Positions 15,098 to 44,870 of a DNA stretch of 61,312 nucleotides are shown here, one piece after another. The position numbers and the translations under genes are program-made. The first letter of the stretch is position 1. Every line of letters starts with the position of its first letter. This DNA comes from Asterionella formosa (taxonomy: Eukaryota). Below the pieces are notes generated by a model. It did not search any database. It was not told the DNA's origin and saw only the letters and a list, made by a program, of their open reading frames with translations. The DNA lies in contig NKIB01013244.1 in assembly GCA_002256025.1 (NCBI GenBank), positions 1-61,312 of the forward strand, given 5' to 3'.

Positions 15098-16057
15098 TTT
15101 CTCACCGGAAGATATATACTGATGCTATTTGAAGGTTTCCTATTTATTGAAATTGCCTTCAGACCCAGCCAACGTTGAGCTTTCATCATCCAAAAATTCA
15201 GCCTTTTCTACAGTATCCAAAATATCAGAATCAGAATGACCATAAGCCAAAACATCATCATTGGAATAGTACTCATGTGCCAGAATTCATAGTCATAAAA
15301 TCTTCTGTCCAAAAAATTCCATTGTAGGTGCCCGCTTGTTAAAGTGAGCTCATCTACGTAGTTAGGACTCGGAGTCAAACGATTCAAATGAGTCAACTTT
15401 GATGTACCAAGCTCTCATCAACCACACATTATACTTTGTTACTCCGACTATGATGAGCCGGACAATATAAGCTATTTCGGAAGACCGATAGTTTGAAATG
15501 AATGATCATGGTTAAATACCTATGATCAGTAAGTGTGAGATAGACATGGGTCTATCTATGATTGTATGTTCCTAGAAATGCAAACAGCATTTGGAGAATA
15601 GTTCGTTTGTTTTGTTCAAACAGAACAACCTAAACTAGATTAGTAAACTCACAATAAGAATATAGAAACGGAAAGAGAAACGAACGTCTCTATCTATAGT
15701 CTTCTTTGTCTAACGATATAGATCTATACAAAAGGTAATACTTTAACACCCGCTTCTAGATATATAATATGATTGGTCAAGCAAAGTGAATTACTTACCT
15801 CCATTTGATAGTAGGCCTGATCTGCAGCAGGGTGTTGCAAAACCTATGCCGGCCACACTTGATGCACACATATCTTTTTTTCTCTTGAGGTTTTTGTCTT
15901 GTTATAAGAATATGGTTACCGCAAATGTGGTCATTGTATTTTTTCGATGATGAATGCTTGCGTAGATAGTTGTAGAAGAATCCTTTTTCACGTGTATGGC
16001 CATTCTTGTGGTCAACAGCTCCTCCAGCATTGTTGTTTGTGATCATCATTTTGACTA

Positions 16058-16297
16058 AAAAGTCAATGAAATTTTATAGTACATTAAAGCTATCTAATAA
16101 CTGCACTCGGGTCCACCAAATAGATGGACACAATTAGTACTGGTTTTATTTGTCCGTATGGTACAACAGGACCTGTTGTCTTTTCGTCTGCCGTACCTCC
16201 CGGAACCCTAGGGAAAACATGAAAAAGACAGGTGGAGAATGCAGGAATCGAACCCGCCACCACAGTGGGTGTGCTGACCACTAAGCCATTCCCTTGG
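16058..16297 (-). mobile_element. tRNA-derived SINE-like retroposon with 15-bp target-site duplication
   Basis: TCATCATTTTGACTA at 16043-16057 and 16298-16312. The minus-strand head has A box TGGCTTAGTGG and B box GGTTCGATTCC. The uninterrupted repeat copy near 16455 shows the empty site. Confidence 0.8.
16233..16294 (-). other. Truncated tRNA-like head (His-GTG-like, 62 nt); not a canonical tRNA
   Basis: AGGGAATGGCTTAGTGGTCAGCACACCCACTGTGGTGGCGGGTTCGATTCCTGCATTCTCCA. T arm GCGGG/CCTGC and partial acceptor pairing are present; anticodon and variable arms are shortened. Confidence 0.7.
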
Positions 16298-16605
16298 TCA
16301 TCATTTTGACTAGTACATTGTAGTTTGTTTCATATGGGGGTTCATTCATGAGCAAGCAGCAAGTTGTCTGCTTCGAAATTAATTGTTGTATTATTGTTTG
16401 TTGCTATTCTGACTGTGTTTGATGATTCACTAAATGATGCTATTATCATGTGGTTGTTTGTGATCATTTCGACTAGTACATTGTAATTTGTTTCATATGG
16501 GGGTTCATTCATGAGCAGCAAGTCTTCTGCTTCGAAATTAATGGTTGTATTATTGTTTGTTGCTATTCTGCCTGTGTTTGATGATTTATTGAAGGATGCT
16601 TTTAT
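16298..16605. repeat. Two-copy ~160-bp tandem repeat
   Basis: TTCATTCATGAGCA at 16341 and 16504; CTGCTTCGAAATTAAT..TTGTATTATTGTTTGTTGCTATTCTG is repeated. Confidence 0.9.
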
Positions 16606-17347
16606 GATGGTATTGTGGGGGATGGGGGTATCCACCCCCATGGTGGGGAGGAGGTACCAGGTACCATTCAACAATAGCGCTATGTAGCTTCACCTGTATT
16701 CTCCTGGTACACTTTATGATATAGTAACTTACCGGAAGTATCTGTTTCCAATTTCCACATGGGCGGAACTACATCGCTGACCATCATACAGAGGTCAAGC
16801 CGTTTTCTCCATTCAAGTAAATTCACTCAGCAGCTCTAACTGCTTAACCCAGGAGGAGCAGGTTAATACTTACTTGTTTTATCATTCATAGCACCAGCTG
16901 TAAACTTGTCACGTTTGCTGGATATGCAAACAAGCTGTCTTCCAAGCAACTCTGTAATGGGTTGAATATTTCCACCACTTTCCATTATTGCAATCAATTG
17001 TGCTTTCCATTGATTGTTGCAGTGTTGATACTGACCCAGACACAATTTTTCAGTGCTCATTTAATTAACTGACCTGTGATCTATTTGCAGCAACCGTGTT
17101 GTCCTGATTTGATCTAGGCTATGTAAATCAATTGAACTGCCCTTGTCTACTTAAGCCCTTCAACTCTAAACAGTGCGGACATCAAGTGATGCACATCTCC
17201 AGGCCAAGAGCTAAAAATTTGAGCAAATTAAAGATTTGTTGACACAACCTTTCTTTACCAGAATTCTTATCCTTGATCTTGAGGTCTACCTCTGTAAATC
17301 TTGAAACACGCATGGAAATTCACATATCCTCAGATTATTCTGGCAAC

Positions 17348-28491: not shown

Positions 28492-28888
28492 TACCTGGTA
28501 CCAGGCACTCGTAGTAACAGGTAGTACGGTACCTGGTGCTCCCCATGGTCCCTGGAACTAGGTACCTGGTATAACAACTACACAACTACCATAGCGAACC
28601 AGGTTACCTTGCACATGCATGGTACTAGTACCAGTACTGCTACTTTCTTTGTGAAAGTTCGGCATTCATCCATTGTACTATTTTATTGTGTCATTGTAGT
28701 GGCCCCTTTTTTCCCTCCCCCGATATGGCACTGATTAGAGATCAGTTCCACCAATATACCGATATTTGCAAAGGCTCTATTCTGTGTGTAGTAGTATTGT
28801 TCTGTCCCCACTCCTAGTTCTTACTGAGCGAGAGTAATAAAACAGCCATCTCGACATTCCGAATTGGTGTCAGACATTGTGTTATATA

Positions 28889-30493
28889 ATGAGCCGACTG
28901 CGAAGCAGGAAACAGAAAACGTATCAGGCAGCATTCGAATGGCTTGTCGGAATCACTCTTCTCCTTGTTGCGATATTCTTTGAAGTTGGGAAAATGCCAC
29001 CATTGCAAAGCTCTTTGCAGTGCTCTCCCACATCACCACTACAAGTCAACGAAGGCTCCGTCGCAGCAGTAGAAAAGGTGATTCCTTGGACTCGGTCAAT
29101 GCAAGAGTGGGAGCCCCCGAAATGGATCGCTGGCTATGATTTGGAATCCGACTCAGTTTCCGAAGGAGACGTCACGACGATGGACACTAAGGACGATGAC
29201 ATTATGGAGTATCCTTGGAGTCGGAGTTTGCAAGGGTGGGAACCTCCGAAATGGATCACTGACTATGTGGAGTGGCACAGGAAATTGCGAGCGACTCATC
29301 CTGCGTTTAACGGGGATAGTGAAGCGGAAATACCCCCACTCTATGTTGTGTACTGCCGTGTTGACCGCGGAAAATTTGCAAAAACAAGAAAATCAGAATA
29401 TGGAGGCCTTCATGATCGGCTTGGATCGCTTCCCTTTGATTTATTCATGGCCAACCAAACGAAACGGCTTCTTTTCTATGTATGGGACACCCCCATGTCT
29501 CTTGAGACATTTCTTGTTCCAAATCGGCTAAATTGGAGCCTCGATATGAATCGCCGTGACTTCCGACTGCTACTCAAGTCCGCACCAAATTTTTTTAAAT
29601 CACCAGTACAACCATGGTTCGAAGCCTTTTGGACCGAGACAGTGCCAGAAGCAATTCGCAATGGTAGGAACCATAAAATTCCTGTTTTCGCATCCTTTGC
29701 AAATGCTCATAATAGTGAGTATCACTTGGAAACTGCTCTGAGAGAACTAGGGGAGACTGATATGATCCATAGAACACCCACTTTTGGTTGGATCTGGCAT
29801 GAATTGTTTAAGCCATCTCCAGGACTTGAAAGTTATCTTCAAGTAAGCAGAAATGCCATGAATTTGACCAAAGGCAGGTACACCGCAATTCACATACGAT
29901 TGCATTATCCAGTATTGACACAGGAAGCAAAGAAAAATGGGCTTGAGCTGAAGTCACATGATGATCCGAAGAAGTTCAAAAGTCATGGTTTTGATAAAGG
30001 TGATGGGGGCATTGTTTTCCAGGGAGACGGAAAGAAATTTGCAGTTGACATTGGACTCCATTCGGTTGAATGCGGAAGAAATTTGACTGAGAACGATGAG
30101 GAGCCATTGTACCTTATGTCTGACGCAAATTATTTGGCAGATTACCTAGGGCAACGAAGTCGTGGTGGCAGCCAAAATGGGGAAAGGAGTGATGATGAAC
30201 TGGATCAGCATGCTGACACACTACTTTCTCATGTCACTGTAGTGGCACGACCGGACATTCATCGGAGAAATCTTCACATTGATGGCCACATTGGTAATGC
30301 TACAGACTTTTTTCCTGTTTTCGCTGACTTATACCTGGCTATGGAGTCACGGTGCATTACCTTTGGTTATGGTGGGTTTGGACGATTTGCAAGGCAACTT
30401 ACCAACAATACGTGCTACTCACAACACCAGCTTTTTCTCCAAGGAGAATGGTATAAGGGGCATTCCCTCCATGATACATCCAACGTGTGTTAG
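28889..30493 (+). CDS. Type II membrane fucosyltransferase-like (GT-B) protein
   Basis: N-terminal TM; GGLHDRL, YTAIHIR, LYLMSD, ADLYLAMESRCITFGYGGFGRFA. Confidence 0.8.
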   Translation: MSRLRSRKQKTYQAAFEWLVGITLLLVAIFFEVGKMPPLQSSLQCSPTSPLQVNEGSVAAVEKVIPWTRSMQEWEPPKWIAGYDLESDSVSEGDVTTMDTKDDDIMEYPWSRSLQGWEPPKWITDYVEWHRKLRATHPAFNGDSEAEIPPLYVVYCRVDRGKFAKTRKSEYGGLHDRLGSLPFDLFMANQTKRLLFYVWDTPMSLETFLVPNRLNWSLDMNRRDFRLLLKSAPNFFKSPVQPWFEAFWTETVPEAIRNGRNHKIPVFASFANAHNSEYHLETALRELGETDMIHRTPTFGWIWHELFKPSPGLESYLQVSRNAMNLTKGRYTAIHIRLHYPVLTQEAKKNGLELKSHDDPKKFKSHGFDKGDGGIVFQGDGKKFAVDIGLHSVECGRNLTENDEEPLYLMSDANYLADYLGQRSRGGSQNGERSDDELDQHADTLLSHVTVVARPDIHRRNLHIDGHIGNATDFFPVFADLYLAMESRCITFGYGGFGRFARQLTNNTCYSQHQLFLQGEWYKGHSLHDTSNVC

Positions 30494-30884
30494 CGCAGGG
30501 TAAACAGTCGTTCGTTGTTAATCATTTTTCATGAAATTTAGGATTTTCTCAAGATTTCCAATGCTGTACTGTAAATATCGTTTTTTTGCTCCTGTTGCTA
30601 TATTATGTACAGTTATATACTATGTATTATATATTTTAGTAAATGCAACAGATAATGATGATATTTGAAATTTTTCGGGGATGGCCTAAGCTAATCTATA
30701 GAGTTCTCATCTCTACAATGTCATAGATAACTTTCGCTTTATAAAATAATGTACAAGCATGCACAGTTGAAATATGGGCATCTCTGGTCCTTGGGGATTT
30801 GCTGGCAGTTTACACAGGAGGGTGGAGGAATCTAAAAAAATTCGAAATATTTTCAAAAATGGCTCTTATCATTAACAATCTACC

Positions 30885-32429
30885 CTAACAAACATTTGTT
30901 TTATCATGGAGAGAATGCCCATTATACCAATCTCCTGCAAGGAAAAGTTGGTGCTGTGAGTAGCAGGTGTTGTTGGAAAGTTGCATTGCAAATCGTCCAA
31001 AACCACCATATCCAAATGTTATACAACGTGACTCCATAGCAAGGTACAAGTCAGCAAAAGCTGGGAAGAAGTCTGTAGCATTACCAAAGTGGGCATGTGC
31101 ATCAATGTGAAGATTTCTCTGATGAATGTCTGGTCGTGCCAATATAGTGACCTGAGAAAGCTGTGTATGCGCATGCTGATCCAGTTCATCATTTTGGGTG
31201 CCTCCACGGCTCTGTTGTACTAAGTAATCCACCAAATAATTTGCATCAGCCATCAAGTACAAGGGTTCATCGTCATTTTTACCATTCAATTTTCTCGCAC
31301 ATTGAATTGAATGGAGCCCAATGTCAACAGAAAAATTCTTTCCGTCTCCACTAAATAAAATGCCGCTATCACCTCTATCAAAGCTAATCTCTTTGAACAT
31401 CTTTGGATCATCGGCAGATTTGAGACGAAGGCGTTTTGACTTTGCCAAATCAATCAATCTAGGATAATGCAATCGTATGTGTATTGCAGTGTACTTTCCT
31501 TTGGACAAATTCATGGCCTTTCTGCTTTTCTGAAGGTACTTTTCAAGTCCTGGAGATGGTTTAAACAGCTCATGCCAGATCCAGCCAAATGTGGGAGATC
31601 TATGTATCATGTCAGTCTCCCCCAACTTTTTCAAAGCATTTTCCAAATGGTATTCACCATTGTGAGCCACAACAAACGATGCAAACACAGGAATGGCATG
31701 GTTCCTACCACGTCGAATAGCTTTGGGTAAGTTGGTGCTCCAAAATGATTCATTCCAAGGTTTTAGAGTAGGCGCATCAAAAAAAATTGGAGCCGCATTT
31801 AGTAGCATTCGGTGATTCCTCTGTAGCCTCCAATTTAGCCGATTTGGAACAAGAAACGTCTCAAGAGACATGGGGCTGTCCCATACATAAAGAAGGAGCC
31901 GTTTTGTTTGGTTGGCAATGTACAAGTCAAAGGGAATCGATCCCAGCCGGTCATGAAGGCCTCCATATTCTGATTTTCTAGCCGTGTGATTGCGGTCCCC
32001 TCCGCAGTATACAACATAGAGGGGTGGAATCTTTGCTTTCTTGTCACCATTGAAAGCAGGATGAGTCGATCTCACTTCCCTGTGCCAATCCATTTAGTCA
32101 GCGATCCATTTAGGTGGTTCCCACCCTTTCAAAGCCCGACTCCATGGATACTCCAAGTGGACTTCTTTTTTAGTGGTCACACCTGTGCGTGCAACTTTGA
32201 CGCCGCGTTTGTCATTTCTCCTGACAATTTCTCTATCAACGTGTTCAGCGTTGGTCCCAACAACTTTTTCTGGAGATTGTTGAATAGTTGAATCGATCAA
32301 TAAATGCGTAGTATTAGCCAGAAGAAACGTGATGATTCCGACAATGACAAGAGATGGCCAAATCTTGGTTCTCCATCGGTTCATTATTGCTGCTAATACG
32401 GATAGACGATATTTTCCTCTTGTCGCCAT
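30885..32429 (-). pseudogene. Inverted paralogue of the fucosyltransferase-like gene with one in-frame stop
   Basis: Same motifs. WIAD*MDWHRE (TAA at 32096-32094) aligns to WITDYVEWHRK (TAT) in the + copy. Confidence 0.75.
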
Positions 32430-32790
32430 GATGCAACAGTTTGCACTGTTCAAGACAAGACAAGGCAAGACTATGGACTGCAATTGGGGTTGTAATGTGT
32501 AAGAACCTGTTGTTGCTTCCCTAGCGTGTTAGCAAGTTGCTGAAATTTGCCCACCGGTAGTACATATTTGTTGACCGGTAAGTTTTATGGGGTTCTCGAA
32601 TGGCTGCAGGGTAATAATCCATACGGAAAACGTCCTGCCTTGTTCACATGGAAGTCAATTGATACACGTTTCAAAATTCGCAGCAAGGAAAAGTAAAGGC
32701 ACTATATTACTGGCGGGGTAAAATGCATTTACGCCAGCCTTCCCACCGAGGAAACTTTAAAAAGGGCAGCAGGAAACTGACATTTTGCTT

Positions 32791-35559: not shown

Positions 35560-37400
35560 CTGCCTTAATGAAAACTTCAGGAGCAGTTGAATATCCCACC
35601 ATATGCTGCCTGTTCGGTGAGTGAAAAATGGAACAACCGTCTATAGAGACTAAATAAAAGTATGGGTTTTAGATTCTTGAAACTTGTTTAGTCAACTCCC
35701 AGTAAAGTCACATTTTGGCAAAAAATTTCACGCACTTGAACCTTTATGCACCCTGCCTCATTAAAAAGCCTTGTAATTTTTTTAAAGTGAACTCAACCTC
35801 GATCCAAAAATAGAAGGAAGGGATCCTGTATTTTTGCCAATGCAACTGTCTCGCCTCCATACATCCCTATCTGCAAAGTCTCAGTAGCAATGTCCAAAAA
35901 TGACTCTGAGAATTCATTGAATGCTTTTAAACCAGTATTATAACTCAGTTATTATCATTACAAAACAAGGTAGCCACCAGTGCATCCCAGAGTTCAAGTA
36001 GCTAATATGGGTATTCAATAGGCTACATATGTACCATGATATTATCTATTACACTATAGCTAGAAGCTACTGTTCCAGCTATCATGGTTGAAAGCATACA
36101 CATGTTGTTGGTTCCTAAGAATTATTTTGCAATAAAATATGCATGTTCAGCTGACAACAATATTTATTATTGCAGCACCATATTCTCAAGAGAGATAAGA
36201 AACGTTATTCACACATCCTATAGGAGGATCGCTTAATTCATGCCTCAGCAGAATACAAATATAATATACGTTCTACCTTCATAATGTCCAATGAACAGGT
36301 TTCTTGAGTTTCATGGGATATGCAATTGGTTATTGATTCTTAGTACTCTATACTAGATACAAAATACTGAGGGAGTGGCTTAGTGGTTTAGCACGTTGCC
36401 TTTGATCTGAGGTTGTGTGTTTTGATTCCCGCAATTTATTGAGAAGCAATTGTTGGGTTCGACTCCAACACTCCTTACCGTCCCGCACGTTGCCCCCTGT
36501 CTTGCGGGCCGGTGTGCAAGAAATAGTGGGTTGCCCCTCCCCTACAAGCAGCTTTGAAGCTTGTGCCGCCTTCCTAGGCGGTCGGAGTTTCCCCTAACAC
36601 TGAGGCTAAGACGATCACCTTTTGCGAAAGTTGATTGGTGGGGAATCCCCTAGCTACCTACCGGCCGGTAGTACGCTAACAAAACTAGGGAAGTACAGGT
36701 CTTGTCAGCAGGTAGCACAATGAAAATTTTGTTGTTTGGTTTTTCTATTTCATATTTTGCGCAAAAATAAGATATGAAGAACTTTCATTCTTGATTGATG
36801 ACTTCTAGAAGAAAGCATGATATTCTATATTAAAGGCCAGCTGCTGATGCCACATGCATAGTAACACACGACTTTTCATTAGAATAAGCCTCCATTCCAA
36901 GATCATCATTAATCACTCTAATTGAGTATTGAAGGCACTGCTGCCAGGTCCACCTAGTAGTGTTCCCCTTTGCTTCCTCCTGAATTAACTGCCTTAAAGT
37001 ACAAGCTAAATATACTATGCTCCTCTTTCTGAACATGAAGATTTCAAAGTCACTGCAGTATTCGTCTGCATCTCCTCTTCAACGACAATTTCAAATGGTT
37101 AGTTGGGATGTCTTTTGAGTTTATTTGAAAAGCTATAATTTTTCAAACAGAAATGCCTTTGAGATTGGCTTCATCTCCATGGATACTTTGCTTTGGGCAA
37201 CAATAGTTTCCTTGTGATTCAATGGAGGGAGTAACAGCTTCACTTGAGTGCACCAACTTGTTTCATTCTTTGTTGAGTGACTCACCTTCAGTTTATTCCA
37301 TCACCTCTTCACTTTTGAAATTCACTTTGAAGTTGAAATGTGCCCCCTAATAGTCGCCTCGTGGTGCTTGCTGTCTTTCAATGTATTAACGATAATGACT
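35560..37400 (-). mobile_element. Degraded transposase-like remnant hosting the second SINE-like element
   Basis: RWTWQQCLQYSIRVINDDLG fragment resembles NWTWENCC in the 43.2-44.9 kb transposase. CpG-poor with many stops; boundaries approximate. Confidence 0.4.
36370..36662 (+). mobile_element. tRNA-headed, GC-rich structured SINE-like element (or Pol III ncRNA)
   Basis: A box TGGCTTAGTGG; B box GGTTCGACTCC; acceptor-like AGGGAGT/ACTCCTT (36370-36476); then five or more hairpins and a TACCTACC end. Confidence 0.7.
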
Positions 37401-43229: not shown

Positions 43230-44870
43230 AGATCCAAGATTATGCACACACAGTGCTCCAGTTTGAAGATGATGCTAATGTTCTGCAGGTAGTCTATCCC
43301 ATATTCAACTTGTTTTTTCTTTTGATCACAGTGCTGGTCAAGCCAAGGAACAAATTGATGGCCTCAATCAGCTCCAAATGAATAAATTGTTTGGTGGAAG
43401 GAACTATTTAATAAAAGAAACAGTAATTGTTCCATTGAAGAGACAGCCAGCTGAGAAGTAGACGTCAGGGTTGTGATGGTAAATTTATTCGAGTTGGTCA
43501 TGTGACATCATCTAGTGGTAGTAGTACTTCACCTTGACTATTAGAGAAAGAATTTACTCTACATGGAAGTTTTGATTCCAACAGTCCAAATACTTTGACA
43601 TCACGAAAAAGGAGAAGGAATAGAGAACAAGTGAATGAAAGCTAGGCGGACTGATGCTTCATAAGAAATAGCAACTGGTTCATTACATCCAGCTAGAGGA
43701 CTCATCATTTGAGTGATTGTCCCCCCTGAAATCATCCAATCCTCCTATCAGCAACAACGAAATCCAGGAACAAATAACAGCAACAACATACTAGGACTCC
43801 CCTGAAGCCAAGGAAGTCTTCTACACCCTCCCAAATTAATCCACACTGTCTGCAATCGACAGCCAAATAGAAATCCTCAAACAAACAAATTACTCCAGCT
43901 TGGGATACCTCCTCCTATTGATTTAGAATCTCAGCCAACCAACTGAACCAAGATGACAATATCACCCATCACCATAGATGGACCATCCAAGAAAAATGCC
44001 AATACATTGCTCCTTCTCTCCAACTTTCAAAAGAAAATATGAATTGCTAACTGGACCTGGGAAAATTGTTGCACTATCACTGTCAATAGATTAACCAACC
44101 AAGGCTCACACTTGCCACACAGCATGCATGCACGAATTGGCTACAAGCAGTATTGCAATTTCCAAAAACACAGCAAGTTCCAAAGAGATAAAATTCCAAA
44201 GATCTGCCACCCTTCTTGCATGCCAACCCTGTTATGTGCATGAAAATTCAACACTACTATGCTACAACAACTTACTTGGATACTACCCTTTCCATCAAGA
44301 TGCTCTGGGAATACATACAGGCGATTGACCTGCATACCAGCACTGGTATATTCAACCTGCAATGAAACATTTGAGGAGGAAGAGGAGCAGAGGATCAGTA
44401 TTTCACTTGAATTGGACTCTGAGCAGCAGTACAAGTCAGAGTTGTGACAAATTCTAATCACACATGTACTTACCTGAGCCTGCATTAGCCCCACCACCAT
44501 ATGTTGCTGGATGACTTGACAAAGATTCTGATATGCATCAAGGAAGAAAGGATACTATGTAGATGGACATGAAAAATGTGCAACAATTCAATACCAATGG
44601 GAATTCTGCAAACTTTGTAAGGGTTTTTGGGAGCTTTGGACTTCTTGACAAATCAAGATTGCATCAAGAGCTACACATTGAATGTAAAGCAAGATGCATT
44701 TGGATTTATGCACAAAGAATTTTCCTTGAAGTTGTTGATTGGAAACTGTCCTGATTTTGAGGAAGAGGAGACACTATTGCAGTCAATTGGAAGGGAAATG
44801 GGAGTTCTTGTTGACTGAACACCAAAATGAAGTTGCAGGAGAGGGAATCAAGCATTCTTGAGGTTGCGCC
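43230..44870 (+). mobile_element. Fragmented Tc1/IS630-like DDE transposase remnants
   Basis: FFDHSAGQAKEQIDGLN..MNKLFGGR (~43320-43400); WTWENCC (~44055); LPPFLHANP; RKKGYYVDGHEK (~44545-44575); CPDFEEEETLLQSIGREMGVLVD*TPK (~44750-44825). Confidence 0.7.

Follow-up and report, generated by a model that had tools for sequence, protein, structure and literature searches.

What is the tRNA-headed, hairpin-rich element that begins at position 36370 of a 61,312-nt stretch of the diatom Asterionella formosa (contig NKIB01013244.1, positions 1 to 61,312, hereafter the window)? The initial annotation offered two readings, a second SINE (short interspersed element) family beside an element at 16294 with a nearly identical head, or a structured Pol III ncRNA, and it placed the element in a CpG-poor host transposable element. 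Here, we find that this part of the window is very probably a worn, dead copy of an abundant tRNA-headed SINE, which we call family A. The element at 16294 belongs to a sister family, B. The features on which the argument draws are given below, in window coordinates.

16057..16294, minus strand: SINE family B copy of ~234 bp with an 18-nt target-site duplication (TSD; 1 mismatch), used as the comparison element
36370..36725, plus strand: SINE family A copy, consensus positions 1-310 of ~363
36370..36479, plus strand: tRNA-like head with a duplicated T arm, from a sub-threshold tRNA-Sec alignment and the sequence
36376..36386, plus strand: A-box-like, putative internal Pol III promoter element, from the sequence
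36419..36429, plus strand: first B box, decayed in the window copy (two substitutions relative to the consensus)
36435..36440, plus strand: internal T run, broken in the window copy and T6-7 in most copies
36456..36466, plus strand: second B box, intact in the window copy
36490..36508, plus strand: two insertions (9 nt and 3 nt) private to the window copy, from the alignment and marker counts
36544..36645, plus strand: body hairpins 2-5, in the consensus, with no covariation among copies
36651..36671, plus strand: 21-nt insertion private to the window copy (marker in 1 of 78 family hits)
36785..37370, minus strand: old remnant of the 5' part of a transposase-like gene (27 candidates, 68-88% identity; translated matches to better-kept copies)

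The SINE reading stands on the other copies in the genome. A search of the 68.4-Mb assembly with positions 36340-36720 returned 692 candidates, and all 40 that were scored matched (42 matches). Nearly all of these scored copies have their first base at the position corresponding to 36370. Aligning 29 other copies gave a consensus of ~363 bp, the 3' end of which is a fixed terminal motif followed by a short T run. Direct repeats scoring at least 9 at the element end flank 18 of 29 family A copies (two of the 18 have common flanks) compared with 2 of 150 mismatched-flank controls, and the TSDs are of variable length, 9-19 nt, slightly shorter than those of family B. Among the 30 best-scoring loci the mean divergence from the consensus is 3.5% at non-CpG and 13.8% at CpG positions. 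The element is short, non-coding and free of any ORF, its copies sit in unrelated flanks, and the loci selected by their tail include 5'-truncated copies. The proposal of a second SINE family is thus borne out by the dispersal of the copies, the sharp 5' start, the T-rich 3' end, the TSDs and the CpG-biased decay. A 17-nt head motif common to A and B has 203 exact hits compared with none for the reversed control, and the 29 distinct head-selected elements divide into 11 of family A and 18 with a B-type head. Because only about half of the best family A copies (14 of 29) have the exact motif, 'hundreds of copies' is a rough estimate and not a count. Two copies, L005 and L016, differ at the 3' end and have common flanks, and are probably one duplicated insertion. 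In the family A alignment, insertions in SINE copies are mostly of 3 nt (53 of 90) and deletions mostly of 1 nt (32 of 50); the excess of 3-nt insertions suggests a genome-wide bias to short duplications.

The copy in the window runs on to 36725, beyond the end at 36662 that had been assigned to it. By alignment count it differs from the consensus by 16 substitutions, one 1-nt deletion and six insertions (9, 3, 3, 8, 3 and 21 nt), and it is among the more diverged family A copies. It is without the last ~54 nt of the family, that is, the 3' stem-loop, the terminal motif and the T tail; hence it is no longer usable as a template. No TSD was found within 1 kb downstream (the best score, 7, is at chance level), and no second copy of 36726-36790, considered as an alternative tail, was found in the genome. 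Of 78 distinct family hits, only the window copy has the marker for the 3-nt insertion by which hairpin 1 is completed, and the 8-nt insertion in hairpin 2 occurs in 2 of 78, the window copy included. A single 110-nt contig from an RNA library covers the first four insertions, differing by 3 substitutions and 1 gap, so these insertions are probably not assembly errors, as far as one low-depth contig can tell. We also considered the window copy as the head of a subfamily with longer hairpins and rejected this, given that no other hit among the 40 scored covered the entire 93-nt query and that the insertion markers are private or near-private to the window copy. The claim that the element is GC- and CpG-rich holds relative to its flanks (GC 0.53 versus 0.35-0.38; CpG observed/expected 0.63 versus 0.33 and 0.26), but its CpG ratio lies below the window mean of 0.75.

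The surroundings contain a transposon on one side only. The downstream remnant at 36785-37370 is of the DDE class as judged by eye, and a Pfam search with it gave no hit. Upstream, positions 35600-36369 are single-copy and do not match the transposase found on the other side, on which grounds we rejected one transposable element interrupted by the SINE. Since the remnant is found on the downstream side only, the SINE borders a transposable element and is not inside a demonstrable one, and the host element proposed earlier is retained downstream and dropped upstream. A deletion that took the 3' end of the SINE would explain the junction with the transposase remnant. Elsewhere in the window, 43238-44827 is a decayed transposase remnant with several stops, related to that at 36785-37370, and 15188-15337 matches, in translation and at 58%, a frame in another repeat remnant, L283. 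Positions 28841-32528 hold tandem paralogous genes of no Pfam family (the first one was scanned).

The head is tRNA-like. Its 5' acceptor strand pairs with 36469-36476, which is followed by ACC, giving an acceptor stem that is intact (8/8) in the window copy. A permissive Rfam scan returned a sole alignment, tRNA-Sec at 36369-36477 (19.8 bits versus a 47-bit cut-off), which displays this acceptor pairing. In the family A head, alignment to a whole tRNA is followed by a second T arm and a second acceptor strand. The acceptor stem is retained in both A and B, with different bases at pair 1. For comparison with tRNAs we used 36 rows, from 30 loci for 62 genomic tRNA matches, with some isotypes left out. 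The closest of the 36 rows to the family B head is tRNA-Ala(AGC), with a score of 60 versus at most 48.5 for the others and one difference in the last 22 nt, and the B head folds as a compact cloverleaf. For the family A head tRNA-Ala(AGC) scores 51, with a top score of 58. On these scores a tRNA-Ala origin of the head is clear for family B, and we infer the same origin for family A.

Family B provides the comparison that makes the modular design visible. Its genome search returned 677 candidates, 40 of which were scored, and direct repeats flank 23 of 25 loci compared with 2 of 125 mismatched-flank controls. The similarity claimed for the two heads is real: 17 of 18 nt match between the head at 36370 and the 16294 element, and the two consensus heads reach a score of 57, with 31 the highest among 300 shuffles. 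The bodies are indeed unrelated (118 of 300 shuffles score equally high). What A and B have in common is the first ~25 nt, a B box and a terminal motif with 153 exact hits compared with 1 for the control. A third variant (L194, C613) combines a B-type head and the opening ~45 nt of the B body with a different rear part that ends in a T run; its body recurs in five other distinct places (L224, L197, L018, L221 and L039). The picture of a common head with swapped bodies is therefore upheld and extended by a third body type, in a design that is already well known, with module exchange a described property of SINE evolution in the accessible text of PMC4758252. The family B insertion site is also the start of a direct repeat of ~155 bp (16294-16450 and 16457-16609, 88% alike), which places the family B SINE at the edge of a local duplication.

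All the listed hairpin arms are present at their given coordinates, but the densely structured body that they were taken to indicate is not supported. Positions 36370-36670 fold at -98.3 kcal/mol with a z-score of -0.48, and 27 of 100 shuffles are equally stable; the opposite strand gives a z-score of -0.60 and the family A consensus -0.75, with local hairpins at consensus positions 159-256 (mean z -1.37). The stretch 36542-36650 reaches a z-score of -2.72, as one of four sub-stretches of the window tried and chosen after the fact. The right arm of hairpin 1 (36503-36508) includes the private 3-nt insertion and the loop of hairpin 2 is widened by the 8-nt insertion, and the hairpins of the window copy would owe part of their structure to the master and part to the insertions of this copy. 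Across 58 named pairs in 44 full-length copies, 4 pairs changed on both sides versus 4.9 in shuffles, with only 2 double-change cells in the body helices. A point against our reading is that the percentage paired and the number of double-change cells (18) exceed all but 4 of 500 shuffles. However, a single pair contributes 14 of the 18 cells, namely the one closing the GAAA loop near the 3' end of family A (U-G in 21 copies, A-U in 14, U-A in 4 and unpaired in 5; n = 44). This pair distinguishes subfamilies and would suit a recognition stem-loop at the 3' end, in the part missing from the window copy, and its covariation may go back to one or two inherited changes. Stems and loops take substitutions at similar rates (11.7 versus 13.0% at CpG, 3.4 versus 5.2% at other G/C and 2.7 versus 1.3% at A/T positions), which speaks against any protection of stems. 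RNAalifold on the 44 copies gave a covariation term of -0.39 kcal/mol and no consistent body fold. Rfam at the gathering score returned 0 matches in the window, and ARAGORN returned nothing there. Given that copies decay neutrally after insertion, the covariation test cannot speak against a fold that mattered in the master elements.

In search of a partner LINE (long interspersed element), a tail-motif hit without a SINE body (L162) led to a second, decayed LINE family. P0001, a homologue taken from a different data set (1 hit among 2599 candidates), served as a genome query and gave 41 matches, the longest of which covers residues 228-1734 at 45% with 12 stops. Parts of this LINE are RT-like and APE-like by Atlas features (0.96 and 0.97), RVT_1 is found on 15% of the members of the top cluster, and the nearest Atlas clusters are diatom; the gene content of the window, judged by eye, likewise looks diatom-like. 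Pfam and PDB sequence searches with the candidate protein gave no recognition, zf-RVT (E 0.016) fell below the cut-off, and motifs resembling RNase H and a zinc finger were seen by eye. The candidate may be Ambal-like, after a clade of non-LTR retrotransposons with the domain layout APE-RT-RNase H, the likeness being one of domains (APE and RT, with the RNase H-like and zinc-finger-like motifs).

The 3' end of this LINE matches the family B tail above all 100 shuffles at 4 of 6 loci (L260 and L275 do not match), and a non-circular profile built from protein-found loci only gives 32 bits, where the best of 300 shuffles reaches 9.5. About 50-90 nt of 3' end are common to family B and the APE-RT LINE, and both fold into a similar stem-loop; among further LINE stretches, 1 of 6 reached a tail. 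For family A the result differs. The non-circular profile did not hit its tail, and in the locus-wise comparison its tail scored no higher than shuffles. The best site of a LINE profile partly seeded from the tail pattern lies at the terminus of A and is reached by 22 of 2,000 shuffles. The A, B and LINE ends have the same short motif just before the 3' terminus, but in A the similarity to the LINE ends is limited to about 20 terminal nt. The suggested comparison with LINE 3' ends hence succeeded for the sister family, and for family A it yields a weak terminal motif that hints at a link to the APE-RT LINE. An RVT_1 search also led to a young APE-RT LINE, the L056 family (L056-L069 and L119-L139), with about 99% identical copies, open frames and a poly(A) end; it was rejected as partner, having no tail similarity to A or B. 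One locus of the L056 group lies beside telomere-like repeats. A 1058-aa RT frame at L138:3331-6507 (C10287) looks like a telomerase reverse transcriptase by eye.

How, then, do the possible explanations compare? If the element were a functional Pol III ncRNA with a body fold under selection, the dispersed copies being its pseudogenes, one would point to the intact second B box and complete acceptor stem of the window copy, to the acceptor stem kept in A and B despite different bases at pair 1, to the local z-score of -2.72, and to the contigs in four RNA libraries, including the 110-nt contig across the insertions of the window copy. However, the element as a whole folds no better than shuffled sequence, changes on both sides of a pair are no more frequent than in shuffles and nearly absent from the body helices, stems and loops accumulate substitutions alike, no Rfam family matches, part of the structure is private to the window copy, and the copy itself is one of the more diverged and lacks the 3' end. 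We therefore regard the ncRNA reading as very improbable. Still less credit, close to none, is due to a MITE-like non-autonomous DNA element or a piece of the neighbouring transposon: the element does abut the old transposase remnant, but its consensus has a tRNA-like head, a T tail and no terminal inverted repeats, its copies lie in unrelated flanks, and the variable TSDs of 9-19 nt and the polar ends refute such an origin.

A more serious alternative concerns the partner and not the nature of the element, namely that family A is a SINE copied by a LINE other than that of B, such as the relaxed L056 group or an unsampled subfamily. The short terminal similarity of A and its lack of a hit with the non-circular profile favour this, as do its different 3' stem-loop and slightly shorter TSDs, and the near-identical copies and open frames of the L056 family. 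Against it, L056 ends in poly(A) and has no tail similarity, whereas A ends in T, and the A, B and candidate LINE ends carry the same motif before the 3' terminus. Overall, we consider a different LINE possible but rather unlikely. The explanation that we hold with high confidence is that family A is a tRNA-derived SINE copied by a resident LINE, and that the window copy is dead. Master copies would be transcribed by Pol III from the internal A and B boxes of the tRNA-Ala-like head, and the reverse transcriptase of a resident LINE, most likely the APE-RT family that matches the 3' end of B, would bind the 3' stem-loop and terminal motif. The SINE RNA would then be copied into new sites by target-primed reverse transcription, with the window copy later gaining its six small insertions and losing its 3' 54 nt.

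One feature of family A sits uneasily with plain Pol III transcription. Of 30 family A loci, 23 have a T6-7 run at position ~66, 65 nt into the element; in family B, 24 of 25 loci have T5 at ~68. In the 15 tRNA rows read as nuclear (organelle-like contigs left out), T4-6 occurs within 20 nt downstream. Judged by these rows, plain Pol III transcription of family A should stop early. Family-like contigs were found in four RNA libraries, where all runs are assembled contigs of mixed samples with small word shares. Their cover is confined to the element and many contigs continue into other flanks, so they place family sequence in RNA libraries and say nothing of start, end, strand or level. A speculative joint reading, to which we give a low probability, is that the U6-7 tract 65 nt into the family A RNA is a leaky attenuator in a diatom SINE system, comprising A, B and the third variant, that depends on an Ambal-like, RNase H-bearing LINE. 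If this were true, most Pol III transcripts would stop as a ~70-nt tRNA-like RNA, pairing of the tract into the second T-arm stem would aid read-through to full-length RNA that the LINE can copy, and the second B box would have been selected because it aids read-through or re-initiation.

Compared with known systems, family A is largely conventional. In Repbase, tRNA-derived SINEs form the class SINE2/tRNA, according to the part of PMC5753468 available to us. By anatomy, family A is like them in its A/B-box head, unrelated body, short tail, TSDs, dispersed copies and lack of an ORF, but differs in the doubled T arm and B box, in the internal T6-7 and in its diatom host. Stringent SINE/LINE pairs are marked by shared tails and 3' stem-loops in the accessible text of PMC3747384. 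Family B resembles such pairs in the 50-90 nt of 3' end and the stem-loop that it shares with the LINE, and the stem-loop of A has one covarying pair; unlike them, A shares only the short terminal motif, and the LINE is of a divergent APE-RT type that Pfam misses. In mollusc SINEs, as far as the available text of PMC4758252 goes, heads, bodies and tails recombine among families, and internal T runs persist in families that have amplified; these runs are T4-5 with C as the next base, an arrangement proposed to favour read-through. The T5 of family B, with C next, fits this pattern, whereas the longer T6-7 of family A, with G next, differs and is harder to explain. For diatoms, the available parts of three sources (PMC5859163, PMC7466962 and PMC8147415) report software-assigned SINEs in Phaeodactylum tricornutum Phatr3 and Cyclotella cryptica, with 13 putative SINEs (1,454 bp) in Phatr3, and in these parts give counts without anatomy or partner LINE. 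No described diatom tRNA-SINE family or Ambal-SINE pair was found in the open-access literature searched.

Family A is thus no new kind of element, but a tRNA-SINE with defined ends and sister families in a diatom. Its defined ends and TSDs, its tRNA-Ala-like head, its sister families and a candidate LINE make it useful for annotation and for deriving presence/absence markers. Of some general interest is the way in which hundreds of full-length copies arose despite an internal T6-7 run, since this touches on Pol III termination in diatoms.
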